The notes under the pieces: generated by a model
Database searches by the model: none
What the model was told of the DNA's origin: nothing
The model's input: the letters and a program-made list of their open reading frames with translations, nothing else
Assembly (NCBI RefSeq): GCF_044647545.1
Contig: NZ_CP172818.1
Direction: 5' to 3' (one strand)
Length of the DNA: 64,000 nt
Origin: Escherichia coli
GTDB taxonomy: Bacteria; Pseudomonadota; Gammaproteobacteria; Enterobacterales; Enterobacteriaceae
Position numbers and translations under genes: made by a program
In this document: positions 32,939 to 33,150 of the stretch, piece after piece
Position numbering within the stretch: position 1 is the first letter of the stretch
Layout: every line of letters begins with the position of its first letter

Positions 32939-33107
32939 GTCGCCAATCCTGGAAAGAGTATTAAGCGTAAATGATGCCAGATCGCAAAGCGTTCAATGGT
33001 TTGAGTAAGGGGCAAAACAGGCGGGATTTAGGGCGTTTGCTGCCAAAAATAGATAGTGATGCGTTTAGTCGGATGCGGCGTTTTCGCTTATCACGCCTCA
33101 AAAAACA

Positions 33108-33150
33108 AAAAAAAAAAAAAAAAAAAAAAAAAAAAAAAAAAAAAAAAAAA
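33108..33150. repeat. 43-nt uninterrupted A homopolymer (poly-T on the minus strand), preceded by aaaaaac
   Basis: Direct read of positions 33101-33150: aaaaaac followed by 43 A, then ccccc. Confidence 0.95.

Follow-up and report, generated by a model that had tools for sequence, protein, structure and literature searches.

A 44-nucleotide A run between flhB and cheZ in an Escherichia coli genome record: probable filler in an MG1655-templated reconstruction

The A run and its place between flhB and cheZ

The spacer between flhB and cheZ in the Escherichia coli record NZ_CP172818.1 raises the question of whether a homopolymer of several dozen A residues is a genuine element of the chromosome or a product of the way in which the record was made. 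The window, as the term is used here, is the entire stretch of 64,000 nucleotides that was analysed; within it, the locus in question consists of the following features.

31790-32938, minus strand: flhB coding sequence, intact
32939-33038, minus strand: promoter region of flhB, 100 conserved nt that match ST648 exactly and lie outside the patch that follows
33039-33106: degenerate patch of 68 nt, homologous to the K-12 or typical spacer, with the REP1 core GTCGGATGCGGCG and ending in CAAAAAAC
33107-33150: run of 44 A, read here as probable filler for the missing interior of a 2.4 kb island present in relatives
33151-33204: right end of the ST648-type island, of read-quality sequence and including a hairpin at 33160-33188 (from folding and genome matches)
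33205-33849, minus strand: cheZ coding sequence, intact

Read directly from the sequence, positions 33107-33150 are 44 consecutive A residues, i.e. a T run on the gene strand. A previous sequence-only reading of this DNA had noticed the run and placed it properly in the cheZ–flhB intergenic region, where it lies 168 nt from the flhB start codon (32938) and 54 nt from the cheZ stop (33205); it had also given the flanks as they are, i.e. AAAAAAC (33100-33106) on one side and CCCCC (33151-33155) on the other, and merely its count of 43 nt from 33108 has to be extended by one nucleotide. Its judgement that the run is exceptionally long is borne out as well. No other homopolymer in the 64 kb window exceeds 8 nt, 8 nt is also the maximum across some 470 kb of homologous and related loci, and at the base composition of the window the expected number of A44 or T44 runs in 64 kb is approximately 1e-22.

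The surroundings of the run, however, which had been taken to be ordinary, are not: the run forms part of a 112-nt patch (33039-33150) that is unique to this sequence, and several more such patches occur in the window. Searches with the central 181 nt and the left 97 nt of the spacer returned no copy from 5,426 complete E. coli genomes; the identical tract, whose presence in many independent genomes had been considered as a sign of a lineage feature, occurs in none of them. Left-junction patterns of 25 and 26 nt are absent across scans of GTDB representatives and JGI metagenomes, and a 31-mer spanning the junction of the A run with its right flank is absent from JGI metagenomes. Rfam matches in the window are limited to MicL, C0465 and three tRNAs, none of which lies at the run.

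The flhB–cheZ spacer in relatives of the window

For 10 kb to either side of the spacer, the window shares 99.9-100% identity with E. coli of the phylogroup F or ST648 type (ST648, WB61 and FDAARGOS_497), whereas its identity to MG1655 is 97-98%. Compared base by base with ST648, WB61 and 2014C-3075, it shows very few differences beyond a handful of short patches. The typical E. coli spacer prevails among complete genomes, 4,477 of 5,426 of them covering 80% or more of a 551-nt query that spans the site. In the loci that were read, it is 201 nt long and contains two REP-like hairpins; a native tract of about 8 T, as had been supposed for this site, does not exist there.

The close relatives of the window deviate from this typical arrangement by an insertion. 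A distance of 180 bp in the window corresponds to 2,467 bp in ST648, and an island of 2.4 kb separates flhB from cheZ in all five genomes examined (SMS-3-5, ST648, WB61, 2014C-3075 and CP142526). The window lacks this island and instead has 68 nt of K-12-like spacer, the A run and the last approximately 50 nt of the island. Exact-protein look-ups with FlhB and FlhA, which were aimed at ST648-type contexts lacking the island and for which both proteins are too widespread, returned only the island context or the typical spacer of 201 nt (208 nt in one case).

The two sides of the run match different spacers. On the right, the 50 nt adjoining it are present in only 107 of the 5,426 genomes (at 98.5% identity), among them the five examined for the island, and the hairpin at 33160-33188 is predicted by folding to be stable. 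On the left, the segment 33039-33106 aligns with the typical spacer at a local score of 34 (mean of shuffled sequences, 8.6), with differences that are rich in indels; its best identity among the 5,426 complete genomes is about 87%, and it is missing from the flhB–cheZ site of ST648-type genomes. Its window-specific bases at 33039, 33040 and 33044 are those of MG1655. The left patch may, on weak evidence, also hold bases from the left end of the island: at one jump penalty, a mosaic of this end with the MG1655 spacer was equalled by 1.5% of shuffles, and at another it brought no gain. Within 33151-33204, a single base, at 33188, is unique to the window and adds one pair to the hairpin on the cheZ side.

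Traces of MG1655 elsewhere in the window

The other anomalies that set the window apart from its relatives are listed here.

16352-16353: loss of 1 bp at the aspS–nudB junction; MG1655 has an additional 125 nt there
22025-22026: loss of 2 bp at the cmoB–torZ junction, just before the cmoB terminator; MG1655 has an additional 133 nt with a REP pair
29276-29328: scrambled argS–flhE terminator, a blend of ST648-type and MG1655-type bases; MG1655 has yecV–yecT (768 nt) there
45307-45479: G-poor insert of 173 nt (A78 C55 T35 G5) upstream of flhD, a corrupted IS1 remnant
48725-48731: run of seven A, the length found in MG1655; ST648 and 2014C-3075 have eight

When the window and ST648 are aligned to MG1655, all of these anomalies co-locate with structural differences between MG1655 and ST648. 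At the sites where MG1655 carries an additional 125, 133 and 768 nt, the junctions in the window are, relative to those of three relatives, off by one nucleotide, off by two and scrambled, respectively. The convergent argS–flhE terminator has suffered several losses of 1-2 nt, has acquired a longer T run and has its hairpin destroyed; its best identity in the 5,426 genomes is 85%, and its odd bases are those of MG1655. In the coding part, the missing base pair at 16352 shifts the nudB frame at codon 3, turning MAYKRP... into MAISVPFRS*; the nudB pseudogene that results is probably not genuine. Wherever MG1655 aligns to a window-specific position, the base there is that of MG1655. With respect to small indels, on the other hand, the window agrees with its relatives in 12 of 13 cases and with MG1655 in one.

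The insert upstream of flhD is the largest of these anomalies. It occurs in none of the 5,426 E. coli genomes, and a 36-mer from the IS1 remnant is absent from GTDB representatives. According to the IS1H annotation and the alignment, its site is exactly that of IS1H in MG1655, in the same orientation. Its last 47 nt or so match the right end of IS1 and abut CATAAATG just as in MG1655, and some of the rest shows a weak alignment to the interior of IS1, with G positions replaced. No signal was obtained for the insert being a G-to-A, G-to-C or G-to-T conversion of nearby sequence. IS insertion upstream of flhD is a recurrent event at a known hot spot (PMC5100188), and thus a shared site alone does not prove an MG1655 template. 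What disfavours a natural copy is the degenerate, G-depleted state of the remnant together with its agreement with the four other patches linked to MG1655. We therefore assign the 173-nt insert to the same class of artefact as the A run; it is neither a natural nor a designed element.

A second record bears on this assignment. NZ_CP172819.1 (strain BS-04), a RefSeq ‘complete genome’, contains a decimated IS1 of 496 nt (L031:378-873) at the MG1655 IS1H site, a gapped subsequence in which 484 of the element's 768 positions survive. It suggests that MG1655-templated assembly left a residue of the same kind here too, and it shows that such a class of artefact exists among public ‘complete’ genomes.

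Origin of the A run and consequences for the record

From these sequence comparisons, the window very probably represents a consensus of an ST648-like strain built on an MG1655 template, with the A run as a placeholder or default-base filler and not a biological element. Among the options named by the sequence-only reading, i.e. an artefact, an engineered insert or a real expanded repeat, it is thus the artefact that is strongly supported, even though the accompanying details do not hold. Template-specific sequence stands at the structural differences (the IS1H remnant, the copy of the K-12-type spacer and the MG1655 bases), an insertion of the lineage is missing (the dgt island, with flanks and its last approximately 50 nt being of ST648 type), and SNPs and small indels follow the sample.

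How could such a record come about? Reads of an ST648-like phylogroup F strain would have corrected a K-12 MG1655 template by reference-guided consensus formation or polishing. Substitutions and small indels would have been converted to the alleles of the sample, as seen for 12 of the 13 small indels, and segments present only in MG1655 would have been deleted imprecisely, leaving junk or junctions that are slightly off, whereas segments present only in the sample could not have been built from the template. At flhB–cheZ, approximately 90 nt of template would have faced 2.4 kb of sample sequence that could not be aligned to it. On the left, the MG1655 spacer would then have survived in corrupted form; from the cheZ side, a stretch of about 50 nt from the island's right end would have been added, up to the limit of anchored reads; and the middle, which could not be resolved, would have been filled with 44 A. 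In the sample itself, the 2.4 kb dGTPase island of the relatives is most likely present at this site.

Why the filler should be A can be accounted for in two ways. The consensus step may return the lowest-coded base wherever a column has no or tied support; alternatively, a run of N may later have been recoded as A, in which case N-to-A recoding would be the last step of the same reconstruction. The 173-nt insert offers a handle on the first of these options. Its composition is 45% A, 32% C, 20% T and 3% G, and a rule tried post hoc, which picks whichever of two conflicting bases has the lower code (A<C<T<G), predicts 44, 31, 19 and 6%, respectively. This is the order of the common two-bit code (ASCII>>1)&3. 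The observed composition fits the rule (chi-square p 0.33) and departs from the window background (p 2e-14) as well as from the prediction for alphabetical order (p 1e-16). With zero support, the same tie rule would produce pure A. The fit was noticed after the fact, and it is a suggestion for the choice of base and no proof of it.

In its general features, this reconstruction resembles the bias known from reference-guided or template-polished assembly: SNPs and small indels of the sample are present and sample-specific insertions are missing, remnants of template insertions persist in corrupted form, and template bases stand at structural breakpoints. It differs from this bias in that a clean filler of 44 A and a G-depleted remnant are not readily traced to a named tool.

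Two other sources of the patches were considered and rejected. Gap filling with raw long reads might be suspected from the many indels of the patches and their 85-87% identity to native sequence, and it is insufficient since the patches hold MG1655-specific sequence. Natural recombination from a divergent donor fails on flanking genes without donor SNPs and on patches that are base-level blends over 50-70 nt.

Among the alternatives to an MG1655-templated reconstruction, deliberate editing, at the bench or in silico, retains the most credit, small as it is. Here, the island would have been swapped for a linker or an artificial sequence would have been planted, and the boundaries of the patch do coincide with those of the island, just as the G-poor 173-nt insert looks designed at first sight. 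Yet what this insert represents is no design but a remnant of IS1 at the site known from MG1655; six subsequences of 18-22 nt taken from it were not found in a literature search, and it has no meaningful plasmid match. Moreover, with 2-4 mismatches allowed, the window contains no FRT or loxP site, no pKD primer site, no lambda att core and no I-SceI site, and an engineer would not be expected to scramble the argS–flhE terminator or to put nudB out of frame.

Even more improbable is a genuine A/T tract, expanded and prone to slippage, in a naturally occurring, island-less relative of ST648. Lying between the cheZ hairpin and the flhB promoter, such a tract might modulate read-through or promoter geometry. 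In its favour, the non-coding spacer is a hot spot of variation among lineages, both neighbouring genes are intact, and indels between close strains are expected to persist mainly in intergenic DNA. However, no tract of any length is found at this place in the 5,426 complete genomes, and both junctions are missing from the JGI metagenomes; the adjoining 68 nt are an indel-rich K-12-type spacer amidst a background identical to ST648, and the four other unique patches in the 64 kb map to MG1655-specific structures.

Nor does the run behave like the regulatory elements that it superficially resembles. With the phase-variable homopolymeric tracts of Neisseria, Haemophilus and Campylobacter it shares being a long mononucleotide run in non-coding DNA near an operon for a surface organelle. 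In contrast to these, it lies outside of any coding region and of the core promoter, i.e. outside of a reading frame, of a -35/-10 spacer and of the conserved 100-nt block upstream of flhB, and neither length variants nor copies of it occur in the 5,426 complete E. coli genomes. Functional phase-variable tracts typically measure about 7-20 nt, a length that 44 nt far exceeds. With a rho-independent terminator, the run shares the arrangement of a T run on the gene strand following a stable hairpin downstream of cheZ. It has no canonical terminator tail, however, since a gap of 9 nt lies between stem and T run, beyond the criterion of 0-2 nt; a terminator scan called no site at the run, and in real relatives the same hairpin is not followed by a T run. 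Nothing in the data points to a phase-variable tract, a terminator or an engineered scar.

Less credit still goes to a simple scaffolding gap between de novo contigs, i.e. a run of N that was later recoded as A. The window contains not a single N, as it would after recoding, and 2-bit encodings commonly turn N into A as a by-product. Yet the ends of de novo contigs would show the island on both sides of the gap and not a corrupted K-12-type spacer, and the IS1H remnant as well as the MG1655 bases in the other patches would be left unexplained. Least credible of all is a real tract formed when an ST648-type genome lost the island and the break was sealed by untemplated poly(A), for which one could imagine the island's putative nucleotidyltransferase of 250 amino acids adding A to a DNA end; if true, the 44-nt tract would be an extremely unstable element beside the flhB promoter.

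With MG1655-templated reconstruction as the preferred reading, the A run is of little biological importance, and it would be wrong to describe it as a hypermutable repeat or a regulatory element. Its value is rather that of a quality flag, indicating that the record appears to be MG1655-templated and to have lost at least one real accessory locus, the dGTPase defence island. False sequence in the record comprises the IS1 remnant upstream of flhD, the broken argS–flhE terminator and the nudB frameshift. Conclusions on gene content, defence systems or motility regulation that are drawn from the record would mislead, and the same kind of residue is found in at least one RefSeq ‘complete’ genome (BS-04).

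The actual biology at the flhB–cheZ locus is that of the relatives, i.e. a dGTPase gene and the 250-aa protein. What the closest relatives of the window truly carry here in phylogroup F is a dGTPase gene of anti-phage defence; compared with this locus, the window has no gene and retains just the last 50 nt or so. The first gene of the island encodes a dGTP triphosphohydrolase (PADLOC dGTPase, E 6e-71; NCBIfam dGTP_triPase). The second, which overlaps with the first (SMS-3-5, L005:1738-3967, and likewise ST648, WB61 and 2014C-3075), encodes a protein of 250 amino acids that belongs to no known family and has no match in PADLOC, NCBIfam or, by sequence search, the PDB. This protein contains a nucleotidyltransferase-like motif, GGMVRD...DLD (GGxVRD...DxD), and matches the PolyA_pol head domain weakly (E 0.099). 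Together, the two may constitute a possibly undescribed defence pair of a dGTPase and a nucleotidyltransferase, which is a lead and not a finding.

A few minor observations concern positions away from the patches. From 58067 onwards, up to the end of the window, identity to the best matches is just about 99.3%. In the yecA–leuZ region, ST648 has a type I restriction/DUF262 island beside yecA, which is absent from both the window and 2014C-3075. Finally, three single bases, at 17662 (in aspS), 33188 and 57207, differ from those of all relatives examined and are not MG1655 alleles either; these are true SNPs of the strain or errors.
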